The notes: generated from the sequence alone by a model not told the origin. A stretch of DNA of 64,000 nucleotides from Alphaproteobacteria bacterium (GCA_965216755.1 CBDCGL010000011.1:4608001-4672000), one strand, 5' to 3'; positions 1 through 18,064 are shown, numbered from the stretch's first letter. A program made the numbers and translations.

Positions 1-1278
1 GAAGATGGCGCATATTACGGTCACCCAAATCCGGCGCGTGACGAGTGCGTATTTGGAGACGGGGCTCTGCAAGGTGTTGCCCCGCTACCAAACTACGTGG
101 GTCCAATTGCGAATTTGGGCCGGTCACGGTCATCGAACGGGGTCATTGAGTTTGGCGGGCCAGCTTTTTGCAGTGAATTGGCGGGCGATCTAATCCTTGC
201 AAATTTTGTGACCGGTGACCTCACGCGGGTAAGGCTGGGCCGGGATGGTCTGCCGACACGTATCGGCAGTTTTCTGAAGGATTTTGACTGGCCGTTGCCG
301 CTTGCCCAAGCAGGCGACGGCGCGGTTTTCGTTGGCGAGTTCGGTGCGTCGTTGCTAACGGTCCTGATCCCCGGAGATGGTTGCTGGCGTAACGATTATG
401 CGGTTGTGCCAGAACGTATTGCCGATCCTGGCGGGACGATCATTGATGGGCGCATCTATGTGGTTGCGGGTAAGACACCGGCGGGGCCGCAAAGCTGGCT
501 GCATATCTATGACATCGACTCGAATACGTGGCGACGCGGGCCGGACATGCCTGGAACGGGCGTCGAGGATGCGGCCGTGGTGGCACATCAAGGTCAGGTC
601 TATGTATTCGGTGGCGCGCCAAAGCCGTTCAGCGGCGCGCTTGACCAGGCATCAGTGTTTGATCCGACGACCGAAACGTGGCGGTTACTCGCCTCTTTAC
701 TGCGTCCGCGGTCCGGGGCGGTGGCGCAAGCGCTCAATGGCGAGATTTACGTGGTCGGTGGGATGGACCCAGAAGGCGCGTCGCTGGATACTCTCGATAT
801 ATACGATCCTGAAAATGATTCATGGCGGCCAGGGCCGTCGATGTCGACCCGCCGCGACAATCCTGGTGCGGCCGTTGTCGAAGGCAAGCTATATGTATTT
901 GGCGGCCGGACGCGTGAGGCTGATGGGGTGAACAGTCTGGGTGAGTTGGAATCCATTGAGATCTTTGACCCGGTGGCTGGTGCGTGGCATCCCGGTGCGC
1001 CGATGCCCACTGGGCGCCGCCGAATGGTGGTTGGCGTCGATGGCGACCGAATCCGCGTCGTCGGTGGTGAACAGCCGCCCGACGGTTCGGCCTTCGCGGC
1101 CAACGAAGAGTACGACACGACAACCGACACCTGGCGAACATTGGCGCCGTTGCCAACGCCGCGCCATGGCGCGGTCGGGGGCACGACCGACGGTGTCACT
1201 TGGGTTGTCGCCGGCTCACCGGGCCGTGGTATTTTTGCGATCGATGCTGTCGAGAGTTTTTCGCTGGATCCGCACTGA
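1..1278 (+). CDS. Kelch-repeat beta-propeller protein, 5'-truncated by the window edge; N-terminal part resembles a glucose/sorbosone dehydrogenase-type propeller
   Basis: Frame is open from base 1 (EDGAYYGHPNPARDEC...). About six Kelch repeats (e.g. GQVYVFGG, GEIYVVGG, GKLYVFGG followed by [YF]DP...W). Confidence 0.85.
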   Translation, partial: EDGAYYGHPNPARDECVFGDGALQGVAPLPNYVGPIANLGRSRSSNGVIEFGGPAFCSELAGDLILANFVTGDLTRVRLGRDGLPTRIGSFLKDFDWPLPLAQAGDGAVFVGEFGASLLTVLIPGDGCWRNDYAVVPERIADPGGTIIDGRIYVVAGKTPAGPQSWLHIYDIDSNTWRRGPDMPGTGVEDAAVVAHQGQVYVFGGAPKPFSGALDQASVFDPTTETWRLLASLLRPRSGAVAQALNGEIYVVGGMDPEGASLDTLDIYDPENDSWRPGPSMSTRRDNPGAAVVEGKLYVFGGRTREADGVNSLGELESIEIFDPVAGAWHPGAPMPTGRRRMVVGVDGDRIRVVGGEQPPDGSAFAANEEYDTTTDTWRTLAPLPTPRHGAVGGTTDGVTWVVAGSPGRGIFAIDAVESFSLDPH

Positions 1279-2429
1279 TGCGTATCGGTTATCTTCATGA
1301 TTTGGACAGTGGCCAGCCAACATCAGGCGGAGCCATCCACGTTCGTAATTTGGTTGGAAAATTGGTGGCGCAAGGCCATAATGTTCATACATATGATTGT
1401 GAGACAAATAGATTATGTACAGTGTATCGGAGCGACTCACAGGGCATGGACGCTCTGCTTGCGAATATTGATGTTCTATATGTGCGCATTGATGGAACGT
1501 TTATCCATCAGGAACCCCTAATCCTTTCAACAATGGAGCGGCGCGGTCCAATTCCGATGGTATGGGAAGTCAACGCACCCGCGGAGGAGGAACTGTTGCG
1601 GCACCAGCAGGAGATCTTGCGGTCGGGGCTGCGAAAAAACCTGACACAACGGTGGCGGCGACAAGCTTTGAACAAGCGTATCGCGCTTGAAAACGACACA
1701 CGGCGTCGCTTGGCGTCTTCCGTGCGGGCGGCGATTTGCATGTCAGACGCCTCAAGGGATTACGCGGTCGAAGACTTGGGGGTCGACCGTGCGATTGTCA
1801 TACCTAACGGTGGTGATCCGGAGATGTTTAGCCCAGAAAGGGCAAATCATAGCTTTTATTCGCAATTTGGAAACGCGTTTCGGGTTGTCTACGCGGGCGA
1901 CTCGAGGTGGCCTTGGCAGCCGTTCGACACGATTTCGCAAGTCGCCGAGCTGGCGCATAGCGTTCGTGCCGATGTGCAATTTATTGTCCTCGATAACGCG
2001 CCGAGCGTGACGCCGAGAATGCCAAAGAATGTCAGCGTGTACGCGCGCATTCCCTACGAGGAGGCGTCGGCCTATATCGCGGGCGCGGATTTGGCATTAT
2101 GTCTTTATCGCGATGTCGCGAAGCTCAAGCACGGCTTCCATCTTTCGCCGCTGAAATTGTTCGACTACATGGCCTCCGGTCTTCCAGTTGTGGGATCGCG
2201 TTTGGGCCAAATTGCGCAGATCATTGAGGAAGGCGAGACCGGTTGGCTCGTCGACGACGAGCCGCTCGAGATCTATCACGCCATATCCGAGGCTCAGAAG
2301 AATCCCATACGCGCCGCGTCAATGGGCGCTGCCGGTCGCGCGCGTGTCATGGCACAACATACATGGTCGCATGTTGCCGAGAAAACGGCGGCGGTTCTAG
2401 CGCGGGCCGTTGACGAGAACGGGACGTAA
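1278..2429 (+). CDS. Glycosyltransferase family 4 (GT-B)
   Basis: ATG overlaps the upstream TGA. Motifs VIPNG and SPLKLFDYMASGLPVV...GETGWLV. Confidence 0.9.
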   Translation: MRIGYLHDLDSGQPTSGGAIHVRNLVGKLVAQGHNVHTYDCETNRLCTVYRSDSQGMDALLANIDVLYVRIDGTFIHQEPLILSTMERRGPIPMVWEVNAPAEEELLRHQQEILRSGLRKNLTQRWRRQALNKRIALENDTRRRLASSVRAAICMSDASRDYAVEDLGVDRAIVIPNGGDPEMFSPERANHSFYSQFGNAFRVVYAGDSRWPWQPFDTISQVAELAHSVRADVQFIVLDNAPSVTPRMPKNVSVYARIPYEEASAYIAGADLALCLYRDVAKLKHGFHLSPLKLFDYMASGLPVVGSRLGQIAQIIEEGETGWLVDDEPLEIYHAISEAQKNPIRAASMGAAGRARVMAQHTWSHVAEKTAAVLARAVDENGT

Positions 2430-2440
2430 AGTGCGCCGGA

Positions 2441-2956
2441 TCAATGGGCATCGACCCTGGGCAAGCGCCCCTCGGTGACCATGACGCGGAGTTCGTCGCA
2501 CGGCAATTTGCCTTCGGAGAATCCGGGCACATAGGTGTCGATGTCCTTCGAGAGCGATTGATCCTCGAGCGTGCGCACGTGGACAAAGCTTTCGACAGCG
2601 GCGCGTGTTAGCTCATAGGATTTCTCGTCATCTAGGTAAGTGCGCCAGGTGACTTGGATGTGCATACGCGCGCGCTCGTCGTCGAGGTCTCTTGGAACAT
2701 CGTGAAACATGGCTTCAAACCACCTGTGACGCATTCGTCCGAAGGGCTCGCCGCGCATCTGAAGCGCATCAGACGCCGGCAACTCAAAATCCCGATGGCG
2801 CGCTTCGGTGAAACGGTAGAATCCGTTAGCGGTACAAATCGGTTCGAAAAAGACAAGGGGATGATACAAGAAGTAGTCGATGTTGCGATAGAAGGAAAAC
2901 CCCAATACGACCAGAAGCAGCACAATCGTTGTGCGTCTTGTGATTTTCGTGTTCAT
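2441..2956 (-). CDS. Membrane-anchored hypothetical protein, array paralog A3 (putative immunity protein)
   Basis: Starts MNTKITRRTT, then a hydrophobic helix, FEPIC, and C-terminal LDDEKSYELTRAAV...GKLPCDELRVMVTEGRLP. Paralog of 3563-4063 and 4669-5169. Confidence 0.8.
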   Translation of the reverse strand: MNTKITRRTTIVLLLVVLGFSFYRNIDYFLYHPLVFFEPICTANGFYRFTEARHRDFELPASDALQMRGEPFGRMRHRWFEAMFHDVPRDLDDERARMHIQVTWRTYLDDEKSYELTRAAVESFVHVRTLEDQSLSKDIDTYVPGFSEGKLPCDELRVMVTEGRLPRVDAH

Positions 2957-3017
2957 CGGATGTCGCGGTTCGTGTGATGGCGGATGGACGAAGTCTTGGC
3001 GATCACGAGGGCAACCC

Positions 3018-3488
3018 TTATTTTGGCGGGATCTTCTCGCCGAAACGCGCCATGGCACCCATGGCGGGGCAGGAGATGAATGAATGGGGTTGGCCGCGGA
3101 GGTCGGGCAGCTGCTGATGGCAATTGTGTGGTGTTTCCCACGGCGCGCGGTCTGCCGCAAACAGAAATACATTGATGATTTCGTCTGTGTACATACCGAG
3201 ATGGTCACGACTCTGCACATAGGACCGGCGCACATGGAGTTCGCCATCTTTGCGCTTTTGCGCAAATGAAGCTCCAATACAGTGTTGAAATGTGTCGACC
3301 GCGGCGCGGTTGAACTCCGGGTGGAACGGCGGTTCCACTTTTTTTGAGCCGGCATTGCGCCAACCGTCGCAGGCCGGCGTAAACGGTGTTACGTGAAACT
3401 GTGTTCCGATGACTGCGTTGATGGTCATGGAGACGGCCAAAATGAGGGCAATGATAGCGATGGAAACGTACTCAATCCTTTTGGTCAT
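3018..3488 (-). CDS. Membrane-anchored hypothetical protein, array paralog B3 (putative immunity protein)
   Basis: N-terminal TM helix, VIGTQF, PFHPEFNRAA, KDGELH and four conserved Cys. Paralog of 4103-4594 and 5236-5706. Confidence 0.8.
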   Translation of the reverse strand: MTKRIEYVSIAIIALILAVSMTINAVIGTQFHVTPFTPACDGWRNAGSKKVEPPFHPEFNRAAVDTFQHCIGASFAQKRKDGELHVRRSYVQSRDHLGMYTDEIINVFLFAADRAPWETPHNCHQQLPDLRGQPHSFISCPAMGAMARFGEKIPPK

Positions 3489-3562
3489 GGGCGATCCACT
3501 GTCGGTGAGCAGAAGGTCCTCGTGTTGTCCACGGTGCAGTGCCTAAGCTGGTGTTGGCGTGT

Positions 3563-4063
3563 TCATGGCAATCGCCCCTCGGTGACCATGATGCGGAGTT
3601 CGTCGCACGGCAATTTGCCTTCGGAGAATCCGGGCACATAGGTGTCGATATCCTTCGAGAGCGATTGGTCCTCGAGCGTTCGCACATGGACAAAGCTTTC
3701 AACTGCGGCACGCGTTAGCTCGTACGACTTTTCATCATCCAGGTAAGCCCGCCAGGTGAGTTGGATTTGGTTGGTCAACCGCTTGCCGTCAAATTCTTGG
3801 GGCACATCGAATATCATGGCCTTAAACCAATCTCGGCGCATGTGTCCGAATGCCTCGCCGCGCATCTGCAACATATCAGAGGTGGGCAGTACGAACTTTC
3901 GGTGGTGGGTTTCAACGATGCGATGAAGCTTGTTGTCGTTGCAGATCGGTTCGAAGAAAACAAGCGGATGGTAATTGAAGTAGTCCATATTGCGGTAGAG
4001 CGAAAACAGCGATAAAATCGAAAGTATAACAATCGTAATATATCTTGTGATTGTCGTATTCAT
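3563..4063 (-). CDS. Membrane-anchored hypothetical protein, array paralog A2
   Basis: 166 aa with the same motifs as A1 and A3. Confidence 0.8.
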   Translation of the reverse strand: MNTTITRYITIVILSILSLFSLYRNMDYFNYHPLVFFEPICNDNKLHRIVETHHRKFVLPTSDMLQMRGEAFGHMRRDWFKAMIFDVPQEFDGKRLTNQIQLTWRAYLDDEKSYELTRAAVESFVHVRTLEDQSLSKDIDTYVPGFSEGKLPCDELRIMVTEGRLP

Positions 4064-4102
4064 GAAATGCCAGCCCTCTCGCTATGCTGGTGGATGGGAT
4101 AT

Positions 4103-4594
4103 TCAATAGTCCGAAAACGATCCTTTTTTCGGTGCGACCTTTTTTCCGTGTCGCGCCATGGTGCGTATCGCCCCACAGGAGATGAAGGGACCATAGTGAC
4201 CGCGAAGCTCAGGGAGTCGTGTGTTGCAGTTGTGTGGGGCTTGCCAAGGCGAACGTTCCGCCGCAAACAGAAATACATTCACGATTTCGTCTGTGTCCAT
4301 CATGCGATTATCGCGATGTCGAACGAAGGACCGCGGTAAATGCAATTCGCCATCTTTGTGTTTTTGCGCAAATGGACCATCGAAACAATGCTGGTACGTG
4401 TCAATAGCGGCGCGGTTGAATTCGGGATGAAATGGCAGCGCTATTCTTTCTGGCATTTTGCCTCCCCATTCTTCGCATCGCGGCATAAAAGGAACGGTGT
4501 GAAACTGCGTGCCAATGACAACGTTGATGGTCATGGAGACAGCCAATATGAAGGCAACAAAAACAATCGAGACGTACTGAGATTTCTTGGTCAT
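4103..4594 (-). CDS. Membrane-anchored hypothetical protein, array paralog B2
   Basis: 163 aa with the same motifs as B1 and B3. Confidence 0.8.
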   Translation of the reverse strand: MTKKSQYVSIVFVAFILAVSMTINVVIGTQFHTVPFMPRCEEWGGKMPERIALPFHPEFNRAAIDTYQHCFDGPFAQKHKDGELHLPRSFVRHRDNRMMDTDEIVNVFLFAAERSPWQAPHNCNTRLPELRGHYGPFISCGAIRTMARHGKKVAPKKGSFSDY

Positions 4595-4668
4595 GGGAGA
4601 TCCATCGTTGGTTGGCAGAACGTCCTCGTGTTGTCCACGGTGCAGTGCCTAAGCTGGTGTTGGCGTGT

Positions 4669-5169
4669 TCATGGCAATCGCCCCTCGGTGACCATGATGC
4701 GGAGTTTGTCGCAGGGCAACTTGCCTTCGGAGAATCCGGGCAGATAGGTGTCGATATCCTTAGAGAGCGATTGATCCTCGAGCGTTTGCACATAGACAAA
4801 GCTTCTGACAGCGGCGCGTGTTAGTTCATAGGACTTCTCATCGTCCAAAAAAATTTTCCAGGTCAACCGTATCTGCTCCGGTTGATACATGTAGATGATT
4901 CTGTAAATGGCACTCTCAAACATCGTTCTGAACCGATTTCCGCGCATATGCGCAAATGTTTCGCCGCGTTCCTGGAACGCGTCGGAAGTCGGTCGAACGA
5001 AGTTCCTATGGTGGGCGTCGGTAATCCGCTTATATCCGCTATCAGTACAGATCGGTTCAAACAAAACCAATGGCAGCTCGTTGAGATGTTGCACGTTCCG
5101 GTGGAGCGAAAATGCGAGGAAAATCGCGAGTACCATGATGCATAACGTTCTCGTGAACCGTGTACTCAT
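4669..5169 (-). CDS. Membrane-anchored hypothetical protein, array paralog A1
   Basis: 166 aa with the same motifs as A2 and A3. Confidence 0.8.
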   Translation of the reverse strand: MSTRFTRTLCIMVLAIFLAFSLHRNVQHLNELPLVLFEPICTDSGYKRITDAHHRNFVRPTSDAFQERGETFAHMRGNRFRTMFESAIYRIIYMYQPEQIRLTWKIFLDDEKSYELTRAAVRSFVYVQTLEDQSLSKDIDTYLPGFSEGKLPCDKLRIMVTEGRLP

Positions 5170-5235
5170 AGCGTACTATCTATAGATGTCGTTTTTTGGT
5201 GAAGCCGTTCGTCCGGAGTTTGCGGGAATGCCAAG

Positions 5236-5706
5236 CTACTGCGCGTCTAAATGTTGGCCGCGACGGACAACAGCATCTATTGCCGCGCAATAGTGGTCGC
5301 CATCCGTTCGACCTGCCACGGCGGGCGGCATACTGCTGCACTTATGCGATGAATAAGATGGTCCGCGATCGGGCGCATAGAGGAATACGTTTAGGATAAA
5401 GTTTGTTATGCGATGTCTTGCTTCAAGGTCTTTTGAATGTATGGGAACAACGTGGAGTTCACCGTCTTTGCCCATTTGGGCAAACGACCCGCCAAGGCAA
5501 TACTGGAGTGCGTCGACGGCGGCCTGATTAAACGTCGGATGAAACGGCAACTCGATATCATCTGGAACTTCACCGCGTCGCAACTCGCAATAGGGCATGA
5601 ATGGTGCCACCGGAAATTGTGTGCCGATGACGGCGTTGAACAGCATGGACCCGGCGAGAAGCACGGTCAGAACGACGATTGCGATATGTGCGGTTTTTTT
5701 CGGCAC
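5236..5706 (-). CDS. Membrane-anchored hypothetical protein, array paralog B1 (first gene after the putative toxin)
   Basis: GTG start (VPKKTAHI) aligns with MTKK/MTKR of B2/B3 and gives the same 471-bp length as B3. Starts just after the stop of 5714-7054. Confidence 0.75.
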   Translation of the reverse strand: MPKKTAHIAIVVLTVLLAGSMLFNAVIGTQFPVAPFMPYCELRRGEVPDDIELPFHPTFNQAAVDALQYCLGGSFAQMGKDGELHVVPIHSKDLEARHRITNFILNVFLYAPDRGPSYSSHKCSSMPPAVAGRTDGDHYCAAIDAVVRRGQHLDAQ

Positions 5707-5713
5707 GGCTGAA

Positions 5714-7054
5714 CTAGTCGGGTTGTTCAATCCATTGAAATTGCGGGTTGGTAAATTTGCCGTTGACTCGCTGGACCGAGCCGGTCACGCGCTCGCGCCA
5801 ACTTGATTTAATGTCGAAGGGTGCACCAAGGCCGTAGATTTGAAGCATGTTGCCCTGCTCGGCCGAAATGCCTTTATTGTCGAAATTGAAGGTGTCCTCG
5901 AATTCGAACAGGACGTCACCGTCGATATGGTAGTGCTGGCCCCGTCGTGTCACGCTGAAATCACCGCTCGACTTGAGCTTCGCGCTCTTGAAGGCGAGGT
6001 AATAGTCGCGATCGCTTATTGCCTGAAAGGGGTTGCGATAAGGGTCTCGATCCCAGTGATCGGATATGTCAATAGTGTCGCCATCGCGCAGGCTCTTGAG
6101 TTTGTTTTCAAACAACAGTTTAGTTCCCGCGGCCTTGCCGCGATCATCGTCATCACGTTTCAACTGAAAGCCGAGAACGAACCGATTCCTGTTTTTCTGA
6201 GCCGCCTCTTGGACCGGCTCGTAGGATCGAATCATTTGGGACGGTAGGGCAATGTTTCGATCTTTTCGTGGAAGCTGCGCAGCGTCCAAGAAGTGTCGGG
6301 TCAAACGGCCGAGCATGGGCATGCCGAAAGACGCGGCGGTGTCGGCAATGAAGTTGAATTGACGATGTGCAGTTCCAAGCTCGGTGTCCGGACCGTGAAG
6401 ATCCGACAGAAAGACGCCAGAGGGGGATCGATGGGGCTCCGCGGGTCCCGAATAGTGTGCCGCCGCCCGCAGCACATCGTTTAAATCATCGCCGGGCGCG
6501 TCGTTTTCACGGACATTGCGGATGCCCTGACGATTTGCAGCAACGCCGGGCGTGGGCGGGCCGTAATTGGGATTATTGTCCGCCTCCGGTAGGTTGTAGC
6601 GAACGGCATCATAGATCGTGTCGTTGCGCGACGGCTCATTGAGCGGGAAGGGCCGGAGCGGCGGTGATGGCTTCGGCGGCGCAATTTCCGGGTGCAATAT
6701 GGGCGACGGTTCAAAAAGTCCGTTGCCAACAGAACCAAACTGCGAATTGACGGGCGCCAACTGTGCCAAGGCCCGGAGTGGAAAGGGCGGCGGGCCCAAG
6801 GGCGCGGCGGCAAAGTGCGCTGTAAATGGATTTGGTGGCAGAGGCGCGGCACCGGCGACCGGCCGTGCCGGCGTGGGATTCGATAGCGGAGCGGGTTTGC
6901 GCGGCGGTCGTGCGGGATCTGGCGCGGCAGATGTTCGGTGTTCGAGTTCCGCCAATACCTCACGAATCGTCTGCTCGATTTCTTGGGAACGCGTAAGTTT
7001 CGGCTGTCTGCCATGCGGCTCTTGCTGCCGCTCGGAGATCGATCGTATAGCCAT
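5714..7054 (-). CDS. Hypothetical protein with Pro-rich N-terminal region and colicin M-like C-terminal domain (putative toxin/effector)
   Basis: 446-aa ORF with a Pro/Ala-rich stretch at about residues 45-170. C-terminal LAFKSAKLKSSGDFSVTRRGQHYHIDGDVLFEFEDTFNFD resembles the ColM catalytic region by eye. Function is inferred. Confidence 0.6.
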   Translation of the reverse strand: MAIRSISERQQEPHGRQPKLTRSQEIEQTIREVLAELEHRTSAAPDPARPPRKPAPLSNPTPARPVAGAAPLPPNPFTAHFAAAPLGPPPFPLRALAQLAPVNSQFGSVGNGLFEPSPILHPEIAPPKPSPPLRPFPLNEPSRNDTIYDAVRYNLPEADNNPNYGPPTPGVAANRQGIRNVRENDAPGDDLNDVLRAAAHYSGPAEPHRSPSGVFLSDLHGPDTELGTAHRQFNFIADTAASFGMPMLGRLTRHFLDAAQLPRKDRNIALPSQMIRSYEPVQEAAQKNRNRFVLGFQLKRDDDDRGKAAGTKLLFENKLKSLRDGDTIDISDHWDRDPYRNPFQAISDRDYYLAFKSAKLKSSGDFSVTRRGQHYHIDGDVLFEFEDTFNFDNKGISAEQGNMLQIYGLGAPFDIKSSWRERVTGSVQRVNGKFTNPQFQWIEQPD

Positions 7055-7089
7055 GATCAGTATCCAATAAAAAAGGCATATAACAACGT

Positions 7090-7118
7090 ATTATACAATA
7101 ATTCGTAGGGCGCTGCAA
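7090..7118 (-). promoter_or_regulatory. sigma70-type promoter TTGCAG-N17-TATAAT
   Basis: On the minus strand, -35 TTGCAG at 7118-7113, a 17-nt spacer, and a perfect -10 TATAAT at 7095-7090. Lies in an AT-rich patch ~35 bp upstream of the ATG at 7054. Confidence 0.7.
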
Positions 7119-7306
7119 CTTAAAATTGAAACCGGGATAGAGCCGGTGTCTGACGCGTGCCGATCTGTCTTGGCACGTCGCCCAGAATGCCAAGAATAAT
7201 CCCCGGCGGCGGCGACGTCATGGCGAGAGTTAGGCGATATTGTGGCGGAGAGAGTGACGGGTGCGGCCGTCACATCGGCCGAATCGAACAGATCGACCAA
7301 AAAGCC

Positions 7307-10300
7307 TTAGGTGAGGGAGGCCAAAAACGCTTTTGCGGCTAATAAATCGGGTGTGTCAAAGCCTTCATCGAAAGCGGCATGGATGGGCGTGATCAGGTCG
7401 CGCGCCTGGTTTGTCTGGTCTTGTTGGTTCCACAACTGCGCGAGGGAAAGGGCGGCGCGCAGCTCTAGTGCGCGGGCACCTTGGCCTTGTGCGACCACCA
7501 GGGCATTGGCAAATCGGCTGGCGGCGGAGTCCGCGTCGGGCTTGGCAACCTGCAAGGCCGCCTCACCGGAAAGGCGGAGGAGTTCCGCTTTCCAAAAGCC
7601 TTCGCCGGTCTCTTCCATAAGCGCGAACGCCTTGTCGATTTCGGCCAACGCGTCGTCGGGGCGACCGGCGTGTAGCAGAGCTTCGGCGGCCAAGCCGCGG
7701 AAATAGGTCGCACTCATTTGCGTACCGGTCTTGAGACAAAGCTGCACCCCTTCGGTGACTTCGTCCGGGCCGCCGCGCTCGTTACCCGAGATCGTGCGCG
7801 CCCAACCGCGTACAACGGTGGCGATGCCGACATACATGGCAAGGCCAAGGTCGCGGCCGATGACCAAGGCCTCCTCGGCGCAGGCCTGTGCCGCGGCGGG
7901 GTCGCGACGAAATTGATGGACCCAACTGGCCCATACCAGGCCGTGGGCGACACTGGGCGGGTGCCCAAGCTGCCGCGCGAGGGCGATCGCCTGGTCGACG
8001 TCGGCCTTGGCGCGATCGGGCGTGCCGATCAACCAACGGGCCAGGGCGCCTTGACCCAATCCGCACACGGCCGGGTCATGCCCGCCATATCGGGCGGCTT
8101 GGCCACCATGACTGTCGCGGTCGTACAAAGGCAGTCCGGTCTCCACGTGCGAGAGGCCGCGCCGTATGTCGCCATGCCATAAAAAGGTCGTCCAGGCCGC
8201 ATGATTGGCTTGAAGCCGCAACTCGACCGCTTGGTCTTGTTCGGCAATGTCGAGAAGTTCGTTGGCGTGGCCGATGGCGTGACCACTGCCGACACCCGTT
8301 TGTTGAAACAGCCAACTGCCCCACAAGGCCGGGAATTGTTGGTGTATGTCACCCAGGCTTTGGCAAATTCCATGCGCTTTTTCGTATATGTTCTTGGCCG
8401 TCTTTGATGCCCAGCCTTCGGTCACAATCAAGGCGGGGCCCAATACCGTATAGACGGCCAGTTCCTTTTGACGCCGCGTGTCGTCGTCAGGTGTTTGCTG
8501 GAGACATTCCAATGCCTTTTGCAGGTGACCGATGGCATCCTTGTTTGCGGCGTGGCGGACAGCCAACTGGCCGGCCCTCAGCCAACAGCCTGCGGCGTGC
8601 TCCACCAAGCCTGCCGATTGGTAATGGTGCGCCAGCAGCTCCGGCCGATTTTCCTCGATATGCGGATCGATCCGCCTGAGCGCCCCGGCGACCTTTTCAT
8701 GCCAATGGCGGCGCTTGTTGCGCAGCAGGGAATCCATCGCCGCTTCGTGCACCAAGGCGTGCTTGAAACTGTAGGAGACGCGCGACCCGCCGCCGCGCTG
8801 GAAGACGAGGCCCGAACTGACCAGCGCGGTCAGCGCGTCTTGCAAGGTTACTTCGTCCATGGGCGAGACCGCGGCAAGAACCTCATAGGCGAAGTCGCGG
8901 CCAATACAGGCACCGATCTGAGCCACTTCCTTTATCGGCGCCAATTGGTCTAGCCGTGCCATCAAGCTATCGCGCAACGTGGTCGGGATTTCCAGTGTCG
9001 GCATTGTTCCGCGGACTTCATATCGGTTGCCAACGTCTTCCAGATACCCGGCTTCGAGCACCATCTTGGTCAGCTCTTCGGCGAACAAGGGAATTCCGTC
9101 CGTCCGCTCGATGATCTGGTCGAGTACGGCTTGCGGCAGCGCTTTGGCGCGCGCAACACCGGCGATCAGGGCCGCGCCCTGGCGCCGCGTCAGGCGATTG
9201 AGTGCGTGCACCGTGACGTGGCCGTAGCCGAGCCACGGCGGTTTAAATTCCGGGCGATAGGTAACGATTAGCAAAACGCGTCGGTCATGGATGTTGTCAA
9301 TAAAGGCTGAGATCGCTTCCAGCGTTGTTTCATCGATCCAATGCGCATCTTCCACTACCATCAGAACCGGTTGTCGGCCGGAGAGACCGGTCAATTGTTC
9401 GACCAACGCCTCCATCGTTCTTTCTTTTTGCTTTTGTGGGCCGCCTGCGCGCAGCGGATAGCGGTCTTGTTCGATCGACAACATGGCGGCAAAAAGCGGC
9501 GCCACGGCGGCGACGTCGCCGGTGCCTTGGCTTAGCAGGGTTTCGAGCTTGTCGAGCTGTTCGATAGCCGTGTCGTTGCGGTCGAAACCCGCCGCACGCT
9601 GCAAATGCTCGATCAAGGGATACAGGGCGGTGTTAACAAAATAAGGCGAGCATTGGTAGCGCAGCCGAATATGTGGTTCTTCGGCCACGTGTCGGCATAT
9701 GGTTTCGGTGATGCGGCTCTTGCCGATGCCCGGCTCGCCGCACAGCAAAACCACTTGTCCTTCGCCGGCTTTGGCAAGACGCCAGCGTCGCAACAGCAAG
9801 CCGGTCTCTTCCTCGCGTCCGACCAATGGCGATAGATGCTCGGCATGGGCCGCGAAGCGGCCGTCGACTTGCGCGACCCCGGTCACGTGCCACGCACGGA
9901 GCGGTTCAACAATACCCTTCAAGACATGCTCGCCGAGATTCTCGAGCTCGAAGACGCCAGCGACAAGTTGGCGCGTCGTCGGGGCAATCACGACTTGGTC
10001 CGGTTTCGCCAAACCTTGGACACGGGCGGCAACATTTGGCGTCTCGCCGACCGCGGCATTCGGCAGATCGGCCCCGCCGTCGTGCGAGGCGCCGACGACG
10101 ACCGCGCCAGTCGCGATACCGACACGAACCCGCAGCGGCTCGGGCGAATCGATTGCCTTGACAGCTTGGACAATGTCGAGCCCCGCGCGCACGGCACGCT
10201 CAGCGTCGTCTTCATGGGCGACTGGCCAACCGAAATAAGCCATAACGCCGTCGCCCAAAAACTGCGCCACATGGCCTTCGTAACGTTCGATGACTTTCGC

Positions 10301-10681
10301 GCAGGGTTGGCGATAGGCGCGCATCAAGGCGCGCAAATCCTCGGGGTCCAGACGCTCCGACAGGGCCGTCGATCCAACCAAATCACAGAACATCACCGTA
10401 AGCTGGCGACGCTCAGCACCAGGCGCAGCGTTGGGCGCCGCGCTATCGCGCGGGGTGTGTTCTTCCGCGGATTGCGAAGGTGCTTGTTCCACAAAGGAAT
10501 GTTGGATTCCGTCGCGTAGCGCCTTAAGTAATTTGCGGCGGTGGCCGAGGCTCAAACCGAGGTTGGCGAAATCCGCGTCGTTCAGTTCGGCAAGTACATC
10601 AAGGTCGACGTCATTTGATTCGAATGCGTCAGCGTATTGACCGAGCCCGATCGCTTCCAGCCAGCTGCGTATGTTTGTCAT
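7307..10681 (-). CDS. Class III adenylate/guanylate cyclase with SAM, AAA/STAND ATPase and TPR domains
   Basis: SAM (WLEAIGLGQYADAF), cyclase (ERRQLTVMFCDLVGST, GDGVMAYFG), Walker A (GEPGIGKS), Walker B (VVEDAHW), helical TPR-like C-terminus. Confidence 0.93.
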   Translation of the reverse strand: MTNIRSWLEAIGLGQYADAFESNDVDLDVLAELNDADFANLGLSLGHRRKLLKALRDGIQHSFVEQAPSQSAEEHTPRDSAAPNAAPGAERRQLTVMFCDLVGSTALSERLDPEDLRALMRAYRQPCAKVIERYEGHVAQFLGDGVMAYFGWPVAHEDDAERAVRAGLDIVQAVKAIDSPEPLRVRVGIATGAVVVGASHDGGADLPNAAVGETPNVAARVQGLAKPDQVVIAPTTRQLVAGVFELENLGEHVLKGIVEPLRAWHVTGVAQVDGRFAAHAEHLSPLVGREEETGLLLRRWRLAKAGEGQVVLLCGEPGIGKSRITETICRHVAEEPHIRLRYQCSPYFVNTALYPLIEHLQRAAGFDRNDTAIEQLDKLETLLSQGTGDVAAVAPLFAAMLSIEQDRYPLRAGGPQKQKERTMEALVEQLTGLSGRQPVLMVVEDAHWIDETTLEAISAFIDNIHDRRVLLIVTYRPEFKPPWLGYGHVTVHALNRLTRRQGAALIAGVARAKALPQAVLDQIIERTDGIPLFAEELTKMVLEAGYLEDVGNRYEVRGTMPTLEIPTTLRDSLMARLDQLAPIKEVAQIGACIGRDFAYEVLAAVSPMDEVTLQDALTALVSSGLVFQRGGGSRVSYSFKHALVHEAAMDSLLRNKRRHWHEKVAGALRRIDPHIEENRPELLAHHYQSAGLVEHAAGCWLRAGQLAVRHAANKDAIGHLQKALECLQQTPDDDTRRQKELAVYTVLGPALIVTEGWASKTAKNIYEKAHGICQSLGDIHQQFPALWGSWLFQQTGVGSGHAIGHANELLDIAEQDQAVELRLQANHAAWTTFLWHGDIRRGLSHVETGLPLYDRDSHGGQAARYGGHDPAVCGLGQGALARWLIGTPDRAKADVDQAIALARQLGHPPSVAHGLVWASWVHQFRRDPAAAQACAEEALVIGRDLGLAMYVGIATVVRGWARTISGNERGGPDEVTEGVQLCLKTGTQMSATYFRGLAAEALLHAGRPDDALAEIDKAFALMEETGEGFWKAELLRLSGEAALQVAKPDADSAASRFANALVVAQGQGARALELRAALSLAQLWNQQDQTNQARDLITPIHAAFDEGFDTPDLLAAKAFLASLT

Positions 10682-10817
10682 GGGAATAGATTACACTGCC
10701 GCTGCGAATTGTGCAGCCGGCTGTCTTCTGCGACCAGCAGTGCTGCTGCCGACCGGTGGTGTTTTGCGTATGTTGCCCTATCATGGGGATGCCGAAGACA
10801 GCCCTTAGGAGCAAATC

Positions 10818-13325
10818 GTGTCAGAGCCCAACAAGACGAAGACAGCACCGTTTGAAGGCGTGCGGGTCATCAATCTGAGCGGCGCATGGGCGGGACGTAT
10901 CGCGGCCATGCTTCTGGCCGATCAGGGGGCAGACGCTATCGATATCCAGCGTCCTGACCGGAATAGACACCCGGCGGATCCGCTGATCGATCGCGGCAAA
11001 CGGGTGGTTCGTTTGAATTTCAGCCGGGATGAAGAAAAACAAAAGGCCATAGAATTGGCGAAGTCCGCAGATATCGTGATCGACAACATGCGGCCCGGTG
11101 CCGCGAAGCGATTCGGTTTGGACTATGAGAGTCTAAAACTGGCCAACGAGGCATTGGTGCATGTGGCCTTGCCGGGCTTTGCAAAGGGCGATGTCCGGCA
11201 CCAAGCGTATGCGTGGGAGGGTGCGGTCAACGCAGCCGTCGGCGTTTTTACCGACGTTGCGCCATTGGGGCCTTTGCTCGGCGGTGAGCCCATCTACACC
11301 GCAATACCCATGGCATCCGCGTATGGCGGTGTACATGGCGCCTTGGCCGCGGCGCTGGGCCTATTCCACAGAATGCGCTCCGGTCAGGGGCAGCATATCG
11401 AAGTGCCCCTTGCCGACGCGGTCCTATCCGCGATGGCGCTGTTGGCGGCAAAGATCGAAGGCCAGCCGGCGCGTTACAATTTGCCGTCAATCGACAATCC
11501 CATGATGAACGTGGCGTTTCCAATTTTTCGTGATTTGGCCGACCATTTGACGGCCAAGCACCGGGCGTTGATCGCGGGATACTTGAAAAGCTATCAGTTG
11601 CCGACATTCAATGATTTCGAATGTGCCGACGGCCGACGAATCTTCTTGAACGCCACTGACCATGTCCACCAATCGCGGGCCGCGCTCGAAGTCTTGGGAA
11701 TCTTTGACGACTTGGTCGCCGAAGGTTTGGTGATCGGCAACCCTTATGCCGAGACCGACGGCGGCAACAATCTCAACAACACCCGATCGTTGTCGCCGGC
11801 GTGGCAGAAGCGGTTGATTGAAGCTGTGGCGGAGCGGTTCAAGACGCGACCGGCGCATGAATGGGAAACCGCACTGCGTGACGCAAATGTGCCGAATACG
11901 CTGATCCAGACAACGGCAGAGTGGTTGGCTCGTGAAGAACTAAGGGCCGGCGCTGTGGTTAGCACGCTCGGCGATCCGGAGTATGGCGAGACAATTCAGG
12001 CCGGACGGTTTTTAAGTTTGGACGGTCCCGATATGGCGTCGCCGTCATTGTCGTCCAGATCATCGGTTGGCGGCGATGTCGACTGGCGCGCGGACGGTCT
12101 ATCGATCCAAACTGGGGACAAAACAAACACGTATAAGGGCATGCTGGATGGTGTACGCGTGCTTGATCTTTCGAATGTCATTGCAGGTCCGGCGGCGGGG
12201 CGCACGTTGGCCGAATTTGGCGCCGACGTTATTCGGATCGATCCGCCGGCGCCGCAAGCCGGCCCACGCATGACCAATTGGTTTGGCGTCGATGTCAACC
12301 AAGGCAAGCGCGCCATGATCTTGGATCTCAAGTCCGAACGAGGGCAAGAGATCATGACCCGACTGGTCGCCAACGCAGACGTGGTGTTGCACAATTTCCT
12401 AGACCGATCCGCCAAAACGCTCGGCATTGGCCATAATCAACTCACGGCTATCAAGCCGGACATCATTTCGTGCCAGATCAGTGCTTGGGGCGGTCCGGAC
12501 GGCGGCCCATTCAAGGATGATCCGGCATTTGACCCAGTATTGCAGGCGGCGAGCGGCATCATGGCGCGCTACGGCACCTCGCAACAGCCGGTGTTGCACG
12601 CCATCGCATCGTGTGTGGACTATATCACCGGCTTCGCGGCAACACTTGGAATCGTGCAGGCGTTGGCCGCAAGGTCAGCCGGGCGTGGCGGTGCATATGT
12701 TCGGACGGCACTTGCCATGGGCGCGCAGCTTGTGCAGTTCCCTTTTGTGATCGATCACATGGCGGTTGAACATGGCCGCGAACCGTCCGGCCAAGACGCT
12801 CGGGGCGACGGCGCGCACCAACACCTATACCGCGCCGACGATGGGTGGGTGTTTGTCGGCTGCCGCCGGCTCGACTTGGCTGCAGTTTCAGATGCACTTG
12901 GCGCGACTGCCCAAAACGCTCAGGCGATCGCTGAAAAAGCTGGAAAGCATTCAATGAAACAACTGATGTTGCTGCTGGACCGCGTTCCGGGCGCTGTGGC
13001 CATGCCGGTGGCATCGCTGCAATCAATACGCGAGTCGCACACCGTGGATGCGGACGAGACGATGCAAGTGGCGGCCACCAACGGTTCGCTACAACTGGTG
13101 CGATCGCCACATCCGTCCGGCTATCCCACGACATTGCCGGTGCCGACATGGCATCGCCCGGACAGTACCGTCGTACGTCGCTTGTTCCCGGCCCCGTGGC
13201 CCGGAGCCCATACGCGCGATATCTTGCGGGAAACTGGCTGGACATTTGCGGAGATCGACCAGATTCTGGCGGACGGCGCGGCTGCGACGGAATGGCCAAT
13301 GCTCAAACACTATTTGCCCAAATAA
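10818..13325 (+). CDS. Class III CoA-transferase with two tandem CaiB domains (DddD-like)
   Basis: Two CaiB N-terminal motifs (FEGVRVINLS...LLADQGAD; LDGVRVLDLSNVIAGP...LAEFGADVI). 835 aa. Candidate catalytic Asp in AFDPVLQA. Confidence 0.85.
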   Translation: MSEPNKTKTAPFEGVRVINLSGAWAGRIAAMLLADQGADAIDIQRPDRNRHPADPLIDRGKRVVRLNFSRDEEKQKAIELAKSADIVIDNMRPGAAKRFGLDYESLKLANEALVHVALPGFAKGDVRHQAYAWEGAVNAAVGVFTDVAPLGPLLGGEPIYTAIPMASAYGGVHGALAAALGLFHRMRSGQGQHIEVPLADAVLSAMALLAAKIEGQPARYNLPSIDNPMMNVAFPIFRDLADHLTAKHRALIAGYLKSYQLPTFNDFECADGRRIFLNATDHVHQSRAALEVLGIFDDLVAEGLVIGNPYAETDGGNNLNNTRSLSPAWQKRLIEAVAERFKTRPAHEWETALRDANVPNTLIQTTAEWLAREELRAGAVVSTLGDPEYGETIQAGRFLSLDGPDMASPSLSSRSSVGGDVDWRADGLSIQTGDKTNTYKGMLDGVRVLDLSNVIAGPAAGRTLAEFGADVIRIDPPAPQAGPRMTNWFGVDVNQGKRAMILDLKSERGQEIMTRLVANADVVLHNFLDRSAKTLGIGHNQLTAIKPDIISCQISAWGGPDGGPFKDDPAFDPVLQAASGIMARYGTSQQPVLHAIASCVDYITGFAATLGIVQALAARSAGRGGAYVRTALAMGAQLVQFPFVIDHMAVEHGREPSGQDARGDGAHQHLYRADDGWVFVGCRRLDLAAVSDALGATAQNAQAIAEKAGKHSMKQLMLLLDRVPGAVAMPVASLQSIRESHTVDADETMQVAATNGSLQLVRSPHPSGYPTTLPVPTWHRPDSTVVRRLFPAPWPGAHTRDILRETGWTFAEIDQILADGAAATEWPMLKHYLPK

Positions 13326-13454
13326 TCTGCTCCCGATCAGGATTTCTGGGTCGGCGAGACATCCAACATTGGATCGCCGCATTCTATATGAATCAGAGGC
13401 ACCGCATACTCTTCTGCCCCGTAGGAAAAACCCCGATACGCATTCGAGGACTTC

Positions 13455-15131
13455 ATGACGGTCAAATCCGACATCGATATTGCCCGCGACGCAACTTTGT
13501 TGCCGATTCAAGAGATTGCCGCAAAACTCGGCATTCCAGCTGATTGTTTGGTGCCCTTCGGCCACGACAAGGCGAAAATCTCCAGTGACTTTGTCCGCGA
13601 TCAATCGGAACAATCGGATGGCAAGCTGATTTTGGTGACGGCCATCAACCCGACCCCCGCCGGCGAAGGCAAAACGACCACCACCGTAGGATTGGGTGAC
13701 GCGCTCAATCGCATCGGCAAGCGAGCGGCGATCTGTCTGCGAGAGCCATCGCTAGGACCGTGTTTTGGCATGAAGGGCGGCGCAGCTGGTGGCGGGCTTG
13801 CGCAGGTTGTGCCCATGGAAGACATCAACCTCCATTTCACCGGTGATTTTCACGCCATTACCAGCGCACACAATCTGCTCAGCGCCATGATCGATAATCA
13901 TATCTATTGGGGCAATGCGGCAGGACTGGATATTCGCCGGATCACGTGGCGGCGCGTGTTGGACATGAACGATCGGGCCCTGCGCCAAATTGTCGCATCA
14001 CTTGGCGGCGTTGCGAACGGATTTCCGCGCGAAGCTGGATTTGACATTACTGTGGCATCCGAGATCATGGCGATTCTTTGTCTAGCCATGGATCTACCGG
14101 ACCTGCAGGCGAGATTGGGCGATATCATCGTAGGCTATCGCCGCGATCGTTCGCCGGTGTTTTGTCGGGATATCAAGGCCGATGGCGCTATGACAGTGTT
14201 GCTCAAACAAGCGATGCAGCCGAATTTGGTCCAGACGCTTGAAAACAACCCAGCGTTCATTCATGGCGGGCCATTCGCCAATATCGCGCATGGCTGCAAT
14301 TCCGTCATTGCCACACGCACAGCACTGAAGCTGGCCGATTATGTGGTCACGGAAGCGGGATTCGGCGCTGATTTGGGAGCCGAAAAGTTCTTCAACATCA
14401 AATGTCGTAAAGCTGGCTTGAAACCGCAAGCAGCGGTTATTGTCGCAACGGTTCGCGCACTAAAGATGAATGGCGGCGTTGGCAAGGATAATCTTGCAAA
14501 TGAGAATATTGCAGCCGTCAAGAAGGGGTGTGCAAACCTCAGACGACATATCGAGAACGTAAAGCAATTCGGGGTCCCTGCCATCGTGGCGATCAATCAT
14601 TTTTCGAACGACACCGATGCTGAAATTGTTGCAGTCACGGACAACGTCATGCGCCAAGGCGCCGAGGCTGTGGTTTGTCGGCATTGGGCACAAGGATCAG
14701 TAGGGGCCGAGGAATTGGCACGAAAAGTGGTTGATCTGATCGACGGCCGTGGTGCGCAGTTTGCCCCCCTTTATGACGACGATCTGCCGTTGTTCAAAAA
14801 AGTCGAAGCGATTGCGAAACGCGTCTATAGAGCGGATGAAGTGCTGGCCGATCGGAAAATCCGTGACCAATTGCGTCAGTGGGAAGAACGCGGTTTCGGG
14901 CGCTTGCCCATCTGTATCGCCAAGACACAATATTCGTTTTCCACGGATCCGAATTTGCGAGGCGCACCGAACGGCCATTCAGTGCCGATCCGCGAGGTTC
15001 GGCTCGCGGCGGGGGCTGGATTTGTTGTCGTCATTTGTGGTGATATCATGACCATGCCCGGATTACCGCGAGTTCCATCGGCCGAGGCGATATACATTGA
15101 CGATGCGGGCGAGGTCCAAGGGCTTTTTTAG
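13455..15131 (+). CDS. fhs: Formate--tetrahydrofolate ligase
   Basis: Motifs [63 protein letters not shown]. Confidence 0.97.
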
Positions 15132-15212
15132 CATGGCACTAAGTTTCAAGTGCCGGCGCGCCGATCGACTTGAAGGTCGTGCGCAGACTGCATTGGCGGA
15201 GCCGGAGATAAC

Positions 15213-15989
15213 TCAGAATCTGTGAATGAGCAATCCACCGTCTGCCTGAATGCTTTGGCCGGTGGCAAAGGCAAGTTGACCGGTGGCGAGTGCGGCGGCG
15301 ACAGAACCCATGTCGCGCGGTTGTCCGAGATGGGGCACGATCGTTAGTCCTTCCTTTGCGCGCTTGATGTACATATCGCGCGCCGGCGCCGACATGTCTG
15401 TTTCGATCAGACCAGGTTGGATTTCGTAAGAACCGATTCCCTCCGCGCCAAGGCGCACCGCGAACAACTTAGCTATCATCGACATGGCAGCTTTGGATAC
15501 ACAATATTCCCCTCGGTTGATCGAAGCGGCCTGTGCGTTTACCGATGACACAGTAATAATGCAGTGGTGCACTTGAGGCTCACGTTGGCGGCCGAGAACC
15601 CGCTTGGAGAATGCTTGGCTCAAGAAGAACGCGCCACGGGCGTTGATGGCCTGGCAACGATCATAGCTTTCCGGTAAAACATCGAGAAGATCGCCTCGGC
15701 TAAGCACCGAAACACCAGCATTGTTGACCAGTGTCGTCATGGGGCCAAGAGCAGCTTCCGTTGTGTCCAGCATAGACTTATGGCACTCGATGTCCGACAC
15801 GTCGCCGACGACCGCTACGGCCTTGACGCCAAGGGCCTCAACGTCCGCCATCGTTGTGCGCATCTGGTCGCCGTCTTGCCGCGCATTGACGCCAATGCAA
15901 AAACCTTGATTTGCCAAGGCAAGGGCGATGCCCCGACCAATGCCGCGGCTTGAGCCCGTGACCAAGGCGACATGTTGTGCGTCGCTCAT
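15213..15989 (-). CDS. Short-chain dehydrogenase/reductase
   Basis: TGSSRGIG, NNAG and YCVSK (YxxxK). Start overlaps the ACAD stop. Confidence 0.9.
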   Translation of the reverse strand: MSDAQHVALVTGSSRGIGRGIALALANQGFCIGVNARQDGDQMRTTMADVEALGVKAVAVVGDVSDIECHKSMLDTTEAALGPMTTLVNNAGVSVLSRGDLLDVLPESYDRCQAINARGAFFLSQAFSKRVLGRQREPQVHHCIITVSSVNAQAASINRGEYCVSKAAMSMIAKLFAVRLGAEGIGSYEIQPGLIETDMSAPARDMYIKRAKEGLTIVPHLGQPRDMGSVAAALATGQLAFATGQSIQADGGLLIHRF

Positions 15990-17149: not shown

Positions 17150-17220
17150 AGGAACTGCTCACGTTGGAACGATGCGCGCTGTCCGCTGCATCTTCAAGGT
17201 TCAGGGTATTTTCTAATGAA

Positions 17221-17236
17221 GTAACTATATGGTTAC
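17221..17236. promoter_or_regulatory. Inverted repeat GTAAC-N6-GTTAC, putative TetR-family operator
   Basis: gtaactatatggttac lies ~70 bp upstream of the ACAD start, beside a TetR gene. Confidence 0.45.
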
Positions 17237-17317
17237 ATATAGCATGGGATCGCGTTGATCAAGTAAGAAAATGCCATGGCTATTTGTCAGCTGACCAGGG
17301 CGGTGCGCCACGGTGGT

Positions 17318-18064
17318 TCACATCTTACGTACTAGGCGGCGAATCGTTGTCAGGTTGAATTCCAGTCGCTCCGCCAGTGCGGTTTCTGTCATAAACTCCC
17401 GCCCGTATATGACCGATCCAGTAAAGCGATTAGTGAGATAATAATATCCTATTGCGGCGATTGTGATGGCTAACTGCGTCGGGTCTATGCCTTTTCGGAA
17501 TACGCCCTTTTTTACACCTTTGTCCAAGATCTGCTCGATTAGTTCGCCAAACGGCCGATGGATGTTGCGAATTTCTGTCGATTTCTTAATGTGGCGTGCG
17601 CGATGCAGGTTCTCGCTGTTGACCAATGTCAAAAATTCGGGATTTTGGAGATAGTAATTCCAGGTAAACTCGATCAATTGGTCAAGCGCGGGCTCGGGCT
17701 CGAGCTGCTGCAGATTAAGAGCGCGTTCGGCGGCGCGAATGTTGGCGTAGGCATCCTCCAAAACGGCAGCAAAAAGCGCTTCTTTGCTACCAAAGTAATG
17801 ATAGATCATCCGTTTGTTGGCCCTTGCCGAGGCCGCGATCTGGTCAACACGCGCCCCGCCCAATCCATGCTTGGCGAATTCCTTCTTGGCTGCGATCAAG
17901 ATACGGCGTTGCGTTGCTTCGGCGTCGCGGACACGGGGCGCCGTCATTGGCTTGGTTGAGCGCTGTGAGGTCGCTCCCGTCGCTTGTGCCATGTCGGCAG
18001 TCTCCTCTGCATAGCCAAGGTTTGCGGGGAACTTGGTTATAGGTGGCCGCGTGTTTGATGCCAA
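17318..18064 (-). CDS. TetR/AcrR-family regulator (RutR/NicS-like); true start may be downstream of 18064
   Basis: HTH region ILIAAKKEFAKHGLGGARVDQIA...NKRMIYHYFGSKEALF; C-terminal SENLHRA. Confidence 0.9.
   Translation of the reverse strand: MASNTRPPITKFPANLGYAEETADMAQATGATSQRSTKPMTAPRVRDAEATQRRILIAAKKEFAKHGLGGARVDQIAASARANKRMIYHYFGSKEALFAAVLEDAYANIRAAERALNLQQLEPEPALDQLIEFTWNYYLQNPEFLTLVNSENLHRARHIKKSTEIRNIHRPFGELIEQILDKGVKKGVFRKGIDPTQLAITIAAIGYYYLTNRFTGSVIYGREFMTETALAERLEFNLTTIRRLVRKM

Follow-up and report, generated by a model that had tools for sequence, protein, structure and literature searches.

We analysed a stretch of 64,000 nucleotides (nt) from an Alphaproteobacteria bacterium (GCA_965216755.1, CBDCGL010000011.1:4608001-4672000), hereafter called the window, with emphasis on a minus-strand locus at positions 2441-7118, which comprises a gene for a 446-amino acid (aa) protein, here called E, followed by six genes for small membrane proteins in the order B1-A1-B2-A2-B3-A3. 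The C-terminal part of E (residues ~225-445) is very probably a remote colicin M (ColM)-like domain from a family outside Pfam and NCBIfam, and the locus can be interpreted, with a probability that we put at roughly 0.6, as a bacteriocin-type toxin/immunity operon, in which E attacks lipid II, B1 (perhaps together with A1) is the cognate immunity protein, and the other copies guard against variant toxins. A ColM-like toxin accompanied by a membrane-bound immunity protein is a known kind of system; what appears to be new is the version of the motif devoid of His-Arg, the unnamed partner families, and the sixfold B-A array beside an atypical toxin.

According to this interpretation, E would be a modular toxin, whose proline-rich N-terminal half without a Sec signal would serve in release or in entry into the target cell, and whose C-terminal domain would attack lipid II, the undecaprenyl-pyrophosphate-linked peptidoglycan precursor, on the periplasmic side of the inner membrane, thereby halting cell-wall synthesis. 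The six A and B proteins would be anchored in the inner membrane by their N-terminal helix, with the cysteine-containing domains on the periplasmic side, in a position to block the toxin there. B1, whose gene overlaps the end of E, would be the most likely cognate immunity protein, and the older, diverged B and A copies would protect against variant toxins of relatives. The immunity role of A and B is what we infer from their position and architecture. The features of the locus, with the open reading frames (ORFs) taken from an ORF listing unless another basis is given, are as follows:

5714-7054, minus strand: gene E, 446 aa
6395-7054, minus strand: E residues 1-220, a low-complexity part with 18.6% proline that may serve as a translocation region or linker (composition)
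5717-6394, minus strand: E residues 221-446, very probable colicin-M-like domain (AlphaFold2 model, Foldseek, VIA-align, profile alignment)
5882-5896, minus strand: codons for D387-T-F389-N390-F391, the counterpart of ColM D226-K-Y228-D229-F230 (76-row alignment of the family and motif alignment to ColM)
5236-5730, minus strand: B1, 164 aa, TTG start, PxC at 46-48, four conserved cysteines
4669-5169, minus strand: A1, 166 aa, N-terminal membrane helix, PxC at 39-41, Cys153
4103-4594, minus strand: B2, 163 aa
3563-4063, minus strand: A2, 166 aa
3018-3488, minus strand: B3, 156 aa
2441-2956, minus strand: A3, 171 aa, start placed at the MNTKITRR Met on the basis of homology to A1 and A2
2427-5745, minus strand: three tandem repeat units of ~1106 nt (4640-5745, 3534-4639 and 2427-3533) with one B and one A gene each (repeat search)
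7090-7118, minus strand: candidate sigma-70 promoter, TTGCAG at 7118-7113, 17-nt spacer, TATAAT at 7095-7090 (read by eye)
7147-7131, minus strand: terminator-like hairpin just upstream of the operon, ending the upstream gene (hairpin scan)

The C-terminal domain of E and its family

E possesses neither a signal peptide nor a cysteine in its residues 1-446, matches no Pfam or NCBIfam family at E<=1, and was the sole sequence returned by a word-based search. The phmmer search of 1.84 billion representatives identified 174 proteins at E<=1e-3 and 38 at E<=1e-10 (the query being counted in both), residues 1-220 being without detectable relatives. Among the matches listed, 147 of the 149 non-self proteins start at E residue 192 or later, the others being P0011 (124-443) and P0106 (from 192); in most of the 149, the aligned part of E is residues ~225-445, which extend to ~20 residues or less from the C-terminal end of the match, and the longest family member listed has 738 aa. 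Ten of the matches were looked up and turned out to be metagenomic singletons, unnamed or annotated as 'hypothetical protein'. The domain appears to define a new, sizeable family, unnamed in Pfam and NCBIfam and mainly metagenomic and alphaproteobacterial. The only recurrent N-terminal domain is PG_binding_1, which is present in 32 of 61 longer homologues at E<=0.01 (24 of them exceed the Pfam cut-off).

The AlphaFold2 model of residues 220-446, built from the 76-row alignment, has a predicted local distance difference test score (pLDDT) of 91.6. The Foldseek search of the PDB reported PaeM, colicin M and pectocins M1 and M2 in its first 8 rows (E 1.1e-3 to 5.7e-3, probability 0.84-0.99; template modelling (TM) scores 0.22-0.28 for the ColM-type rows), and ColM-type proteins (PaeM, colicin M, pectocin M1/M2, syringacin M) occupy 12 of the 13 first listed rows, the other one being BtpeA-CTD, a type VI effector domain. 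This similarity of the modelled fold may be regarded as supportive of the ColM link jointly with the motif alignment, rather than as decisive alone.

ColM cleaves lipid II in the periplasm, and its residues D226, Y228, D229, H235 and R236, which form the signature DxYD(x5)HR, are each essential (PMC8469651, in excerpt). The profile of 24 mostly domain-only family members aligns 'GtVtheweDtYDFn' with 'GVV-RSYDDKYDFN' of ColM, such that the HxWxDxYDF block of the family falls on D226-x-Y228-D229-F; the second aligned stretch, 'lehyldgsg' on 'LAHYLWGNG', scores -1.3 to -1.9 bits alone. The Pfam profile Colicin_M (PF14859) is not matched above its cut-off by E or by any of the 76 aligned members; it gives weak matches to 2 of the 76 (best E 0.05) and is the third most frequent weak match. 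No match to the same profile was found in 401 genomes of the phylum, the window's own included, in a search in which the control genomes stayed silent too. The language-model neighbours of the E domain fall into clusters with DUF3289, DUF6402 and Colicin_M (scores 0.92-0.96).

The only viral structure that matched the E domain is a predicted 'tail protein' of 668 aa from an uncultured tailed phage (BFVD A0A8S5UBA3; E 8.7e-4, probability 1.00, query TM score 0.49); a ColM-like domain may thus occur on phage tails.

The B-A array and the membrane-protein partners of the family

The locus has the layout that a preliminary description had assigned to it, i.e. a single minus-strand unit of a promoter, the 446-aa gene and B1-A1-B2-A2-B3-A3, and all seven ORFs are intact. 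E and B1 overlap by 17 nt and the gaps between the small genes measure 39-74 nt; the open frame of A3 extends upstream across B3, hence the assignment of its start by homology. The candidate promoter combines a perfect -10 box with a -35 box that fits the consensus at 3 of 6 bases, which is why it is not among the 3 sites reported by a consensus promoter scan (3.6 +/- 1.9 in shuffled sequences). The hairpin scan revealed no terminator-like structure within the B-A array. The G+C content is 0.49-0.55 over the six small genes and the 3' part of E (segments 2501-6000), climbs to 0.62 in the 5' part of E and is mostly 0.56-0.67 in the flanking segments, and the lower value of 2441-7054 is consistent with acquisition from elsewhere. 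No mobility gene was found near the locus, and no tRNA in positions 1-20000.

The repeat search identified three direct copies with start-to-start distances of 1106-1107 nt and 71-84% identity over 300 nt, which is far beyond chance. The sliding DNA identity between the units is 28-83% in the first ~930 alignment columns and 85-98% in columns 931-1080, which correspond to the last ~50 codons of A. The proteins are 58-61% identical among the A copies and 42% among the B copies. The divergence of central parts that had been described earlier holds for the A proteins, whose last ~60 residues are nearly identical, but not for the B proteins, which are diverged along the whole length. Synonymous sites are saturated in most pairwise comparisons of A/B copies, and the duplications of the B-A unit appear from the sequences to be old. 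For those pairs that allowed a calculation, the ratio of nonsynonymous to synonymous substitution rates (dN/dS) ranges from 0.03 to 0.46, with 0.18-0.26 for entire genes, and all six small genes are accordingly kept by selection. In the last third of A, dS is ~0.5 and dN is 0.01-0.07; the near-identity of this 3' end suggests gene conversion or a strongly constrained module. The hhalign comparison of A with B (probability 87.5% over the first 77 residues) makes them look like distant paralogues, and the strict alternation, which had earlier been taken as a hint of heterodimeric immunity, would then be explained by two duplication rounds of a two-gene unit and call for nothing further.

All six small proteins (156-171 aa, in agreement with the sizes of ~160-170 aa estimated earlier) exhibit one hydrophobic helix inside the first 35 residues, preceded by basic residues in 5 of the 6, and conserved cysteines, of which C41 and C153 are invariant in A, and C48, C78, C131 and C148 in B. 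A Pro-x-Cys motif lies a few residues past the helix, at positions 38-48, and the last Cys is found 13-23 residues from the C-terminus. Membrane-anchored proteins with cysteines, which may form disulfide bonds in the periplasm, are what the preliminary description had expected of immunity to a periplasm-acting toxin, and the helix and the conserved cysteines of all six agree with that expectation (PMC8469651, in excerpt). The B1 model (pLDDT 78.3) is mostly helical. Prediction of a complex of the periplasmic parts of B1 and A1 with the E domain, in which E was scored, gave a score of 0.01 and a mark of 0.32, a neutral result that counts neither way.

The hidden Markov model (HMM) of the E-domain family was searched in 401 genomes sampled from the class and matched 13 of them, the window's own included, at 1-3 places per genome, some of which are fragments; the window's genome has a single member. 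In 16 regions fetched from other genomes, ORFs were called by a simple longest-ORF script and helices by a hydropathy threshold, and the calls are rough. In 14 of these 16 regions a membrane-protein gene lies beside the toxin gene. In eight (L039, L040, L041, L045, L047, L050, L051 and L052) it is the next same-strand gene, often overlapping, and encodes 149-225 aa with one N-terminal helix and Cys; in L048 the partner is a Sel1-repeat protein with an N-terminal helix; L042 and L043, the latter from a genome of the same taxonomic family as the window's, have convergent genes for ~200-aa proteins with several helices; the partners in L044 and L046, encoded on the same strand, measure 277-278 aa and have 6-8 predicted helices; and in L053 small 3-5-helix proteins follow each of two family members, in six tandem copies after one of them. 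No partner was recognised in L038 and L049. Scanning from one partner family led to 2 loci, one being a contig already known and the other an independent alphaproteobacterial metagenome-assembled genome with a 495-aa family member directly upstream (E 3.8e-33). Of the nine foreign partners with a single helix, five repeat the layout of PxC after the helix and a late Cys, and another keeps the two-Cys spacing but lacks the PxC. In the six proteins of the window and these five foreign partners, PxC is located a few to ~25 residues past the helix, and 9-23 residues separate the last Cys from the C-terminus. The survey of gene neighbourhoods, which the preliminary description had proposed as a check, thus revealed recurring membrane-protein genes beside the toxin family, some of them in tandem arrays.

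Three of the foreign regions have further peculiarities. In L053 (G140:C34:258000-274000), ~4800-12000 harbours two ColM-like genes (219 and 245 aa) and eleven small 3-5-helix genes, with a lower third-position G+C of 0.38-0.47 in these cassettes (0.49 in one small gene without predicted helices). The flanking genes, which we take to be head-tail genes of a phage or a gene-transfer agent (GTA), suggest that the cassettes can travel as cargo in phage/GTA-like clusters. In L042 (G340:C1:4244000-4257000), 4340-7890 carries a full family member of 597 aa and a convergent membrane gene; beyond them lie a piece of another member, 86 aa long, and another convergent membrane gene, and this second set looks like a decayed duplicate module. 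In L050 (G107:C1:510000-522000), 4991-9394 comprises two tandem single-helix paralogues (170 and 179 aa) after the family member, and next to them genes for a 406-aa and a 195-aa protein (the latter with an N-terminal helix), both without a Pfam match, which may be a second, unrelated toxin-immunity pair.

Counter-evidence and alternative explanations

Several observations weigh against the toxin/immunity interpretation; they concern the distance to ColM, the active site of E, the route of delivery, and the isolation of A and B. As to the distance, the link of the family to ColM must be considered remote on the sequence level: the family profile matches the ColM chains at E 0.17-0.21, and the missing Pfam assignment of E points the same way. 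In the VIA-align comparison, 12 of the top 16 rows, with chains of ColM-type proteins and BtpeA-CTD, have Z scores of 5.2-7.2 over 140-171 residues, values to be read with the caution that Z <8 may reflect a common arrangement, that every Z of the E domain is below 8, and that an unrelated pilin reaches Z 6.9-7.0 over ~110 residues. Moreover, the 76-row alignment contains no conserved His-Arg downstream of DxYDF anywhere in the family, so that the complete ColM signature is absent.

As to the active site, the columns conserved in the 76 rows are G265 (69), G356 (75), R370 (70), G372 (71), G379 (73), H383 (66), D387 (72), Y389 (71, with F in 5), D390 (63, with N in 10), F391 (72) and W441 (73). 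The window's E has G265D and G356K at near-invariant glycines as well as H383F, Y389F and D390N, and the last three occur together in no other row, P0048 coming near with Leu, Phe and Asn at 383, 389 and 390. In ColM, Y228A and D229A, i.e. alanine at the counterparts of Y389 and D390, nearly abolish the activity (<2% left), and PmnH provides a precedent of a naturally occurring ColM-like domain whose motif is degenerate and which seems to be inactive (PMC8469651, in excerpt). Given the three replaced conserved positions, the window's E may be weakened or dead, or it may be fully active with a variant site. Perhaps, then, the toxin was disarmed and the shield kept, with E catalytically dead or strongly weakened and the six membrane proteins forming an orphan-immunity island against the toxins of other strains; such a state would also fit the finding of no release route. 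We nevertheless regard it as unlikely, since D387, the counterpart of the most critical residue in ColM, the first Asp, is retained, Phe (5/76) and Asn (10/76) are each seen in other members, the toxins of L042 and L043 have the YNF form, are intact and possess membrane partners of their own, and the ORF of E in the window is undamaged and preceded by a perfect -10 box. The toxin/immunity locus postulated in the preliminary description is supported as regards the ColM-related C-terminal domain, the membrane-gene neighbours in other genomes, and the anchor and cysteines of A and B, but is called into question by the deviation of the window's E at probably catalytic positions.

As to delivery, neither TssC (PF05943) nor Hcp (PF05638) was matched in the 99.8%-complete genome (an E. 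coli control matched both), and type VI delivery was rejected for the window's genome on these grounds. The 36 other large ORFs of the window that were scanned are metabolic or transport genes, in agreement with the earlier statement that no secretion or delivery genes are present in the window, and neither a lysis gene nor other phage genes were found there. None of the 82 family members of >=300 aa has a signal-peptide-like N-terminus. A proline-rich N-terminal half combined with the lack of a signal peptide would be expected of a colicin-type bacteriocin released by lysis. Or could the locus itself be a lysis cassette, with E breaking down the wall from inside in the manner of an endolysin and the small membrane proteins serving as holins or antiholins that let it into the periplasm? 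Phage T4 holin T consists of one helix and a disulfide-bonded periplasmic domain, and a signal-less protein whose relatives often carry PG_binding_1 is directly followed here by small membrane proteins; in addition, the cassettes of L053 are situated inside a cluster of what look like phage- or GTA-like head-tail genes, and the phage 'tail protein' mentioned above has the same fold. We consider this explanation highly improbable: 3-6 tandem diverged copies, partners of 277-278 aa with 6-8 helices and convergent partners fit immunity rather than holins, and the absence of other phage genes from the window argues in the same direction.

As to A and B, neither family has detectable relatives outside its own genome, as judged from the sequence searches: a word-based search of 5.8 billion sequences with A1 returned just the three own copies, and a profile search for A/B relatives returned only relatives of the foreign rows contained in the profile. 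No Pfam or NCBIfam family matches A or B, and an 11-row profile found no match among the PDB sequences at E<=10. The B1 model has no convincing fold match (best Foldseek E 1.1, best VIA-align Z 3.4), so that the fold search, another check proposed earlier, led to ColM-type bacteriocins for the E domain and to nothing comparable for B1, and both small-protein families are as unrecognisable as they had been said to be. HMMs of A and B gave no significant match to any ORF of the 16 foreign regions (best E 0.32), and the hhalign probabilities for A or B with two of the foreign partner families were 0.7-10%; because both comparisons are non-significant, common descent of A/B and the foreign partners is not demonstrated.

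The lack of any known immunity family or fold for A and B leaves room for the explanation that they are not immunity proteins, but envelope proteins merely co-transcribed with E, which would be a cell-envelope enzyme of the bacterium itself, e.g. in the turnover of lipid-linked precursors. PG_binding_1, seen in 32 of the 61 homologues, is indeed frequent among wall enzymes with housekeeping roles. A periplasmic enzyme of that sort would, however, need an export signal, which 0 of 82 members have; the distribution of the family is patchy (13 of 401 genomes), the G+C content of the array (0.49-0.55) is below that of most flanking segments, and partners that evolve fast, differ in type from locus to locus and occur in tandem arrays follow the pattern of conflict genes. 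We therefore find this explanation improbable, though less so than the lysis cassette and more so than a disarmed toxin.

The neighbours of the locus are genes for a Kelch protein, a GT4 glycosyltransferase, a SAM-cyclase-AAA protein, a coenzyme A transferase (CoA-transferase) and a formate-tetrahydrofolate ligase. The gene directly upstream (7307-10681, minus strand) encodes a 1124-aa protein with SAM, adenylate/guanylate cyclase and AAA_16 domains and shows no sign of belonging to the locus. Far away, the minus strand at 58007-60479 has two adjoining ORFs (200 and 335 aa) with pieces of MoCoBD_2 and MoCoBD_1, and a third one of 205 aa without a family; judging by these matches, the three resemble the large subunit of a molybdopterin oxidoreductase that has been broken up.

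Comparison with known systems and significance

The closest known systems are the ColM-like bacteriocins (PaeM, syringacin M, pectocins M1/M2 and burkhocins, with Cmi- or PmiA-type immunity), which share with E the modular build with the catalytic domain last and the lack of a signal peptide, are its best fold matches and, in the case of ColM, have the blocks H-Y-L-x-G-x-G and D-x-Y-D-F in common with the family profile. An adjacent membrane gene of the immunity type is found in both, the window having six such genes. The E family differs from ColM in the absence of the His-Arg of DxYD(x5)HR (the window's copy reads D-T-F-N), in N-termini that are proline-rich or carry PG_binding_1, unlike the known translocation and receptor domains of ColM, and in immunity-type genes that are mostly on the same strand and overlap the toxin gene. 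The immunity gene of ColM-like bacteriocins encodes either an anchored periplasmic protein or an integral membrane protein (PMC8469651 and PMC5277000, both in excerpt), and the partners in the foreign regions, being of both kinds, fit these two known types.

Cmi, the immunity protein of ColM, has a total length of ~117 residues. Like the Cmi/YebF proteins, all six A and B proteins have an N-terminal anchor, one early Cys and one Cys near the C-terminus; no similarity to Cmi/YebF was detected, either in the search of PDB sequences or in the fold of the B1 model (pLDDT 78.3). In Cmi, C31 and C107 form an essential pair (PMC8469651, in excerpt).

DUF3289 is an experimentally demonstrated ColM-like type VI effector, with DUF943 as its immunity protein (PMC11148199, in excerpt), and resembles the present system in that the gene after the remote ColM-like toxin encodes ~155 aa with a membrane helix at the N-terminus (L056 and L057). 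The nearest language-model cluster of the E domain is DUF3289 (score 0.96). An identity of the E family with DUF3289 was rejected, as hhalign against two DUF3289 proteins gave 1.8% and H-x-x-x-G-x-G as the only common part; so was an identity of A/B with DUF943 (hhalign probability 0.5%, no Pfam match), for which the gene after DUF3289 in L056 served as a positive control (DUF943 at 2.1e-23). BtpeA-CTD, which forms a type VI effector-immunity complex with BtpiA in Bacteroides fragilis (PDB 9jdi), is the joint-highest match of the E domain (Z 7.2, root mean square deviation 3.9 A over 171 residues), and differs from it by the low identity of 14%, the other phylum and the other delivery system. 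A 'novel Colicin M-like toxin domain', whose BamE-like immunity proteins are anchored in the membrane and evolve rapidly, has been described in a paper on the lipocone superfamily (PMC12419801, in excerpt); the concept of a new ColM-fold toxin with a fast-evolving anchored periplasmic immunity protein is the same, and that domain might include the E family. By description it is set apart from E by its fusion to lipobox/cystatin-like N-termini (same source), and the fold search with the B1 model gave no BamE match.

The preliminary description had spoken of a polymorphic toxin. In the strict sense (PMC3482391) this designation could not be upheld, for no PAAR, Rhs, LXG or similar trafficking domain was found in the 61 homologues scanned; the array of putative immunity genes that also characterises polymorphic toxin loci is present, with three B and three A copies here and tandem partners in L050 and L053. 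The literature searched contained no description of the present architecture, i.e. a ColM-like domain with a six-gene B-A array.

A more far-reaching version of the toxin/immunity interpretation, which we consider unlikely in its entirety, would be that E represents an undescribed, mainly alphaproteobacterial ColM-like branch without His-Arg (here also without the Tyr and the second Asp), released without type VI secretion, perhaps by phage- or GTA-linked lysis, and neutralised by obligate, disulfide-bonded B+A units of a new fold, each specific for one toxin variant.

Lipid II ranks among the best validated targets of antibacterial agents, and to our knowledge only few protein families destroy it. 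A further ColM-like family, with at least 174 diverse representatives and usually a membrane-bound partner of its own, would widen the known range of this weapon. The natural variants of the active site, i.e. a family without His-Arg and a copy without the Tyr and one Asp, would probe what the chemistry requires, and the sixfold array would offer a compact system for the evolution of immunity specificity. If the toxin is dead, the locus would be a clear case of a shield outlasting the sword.

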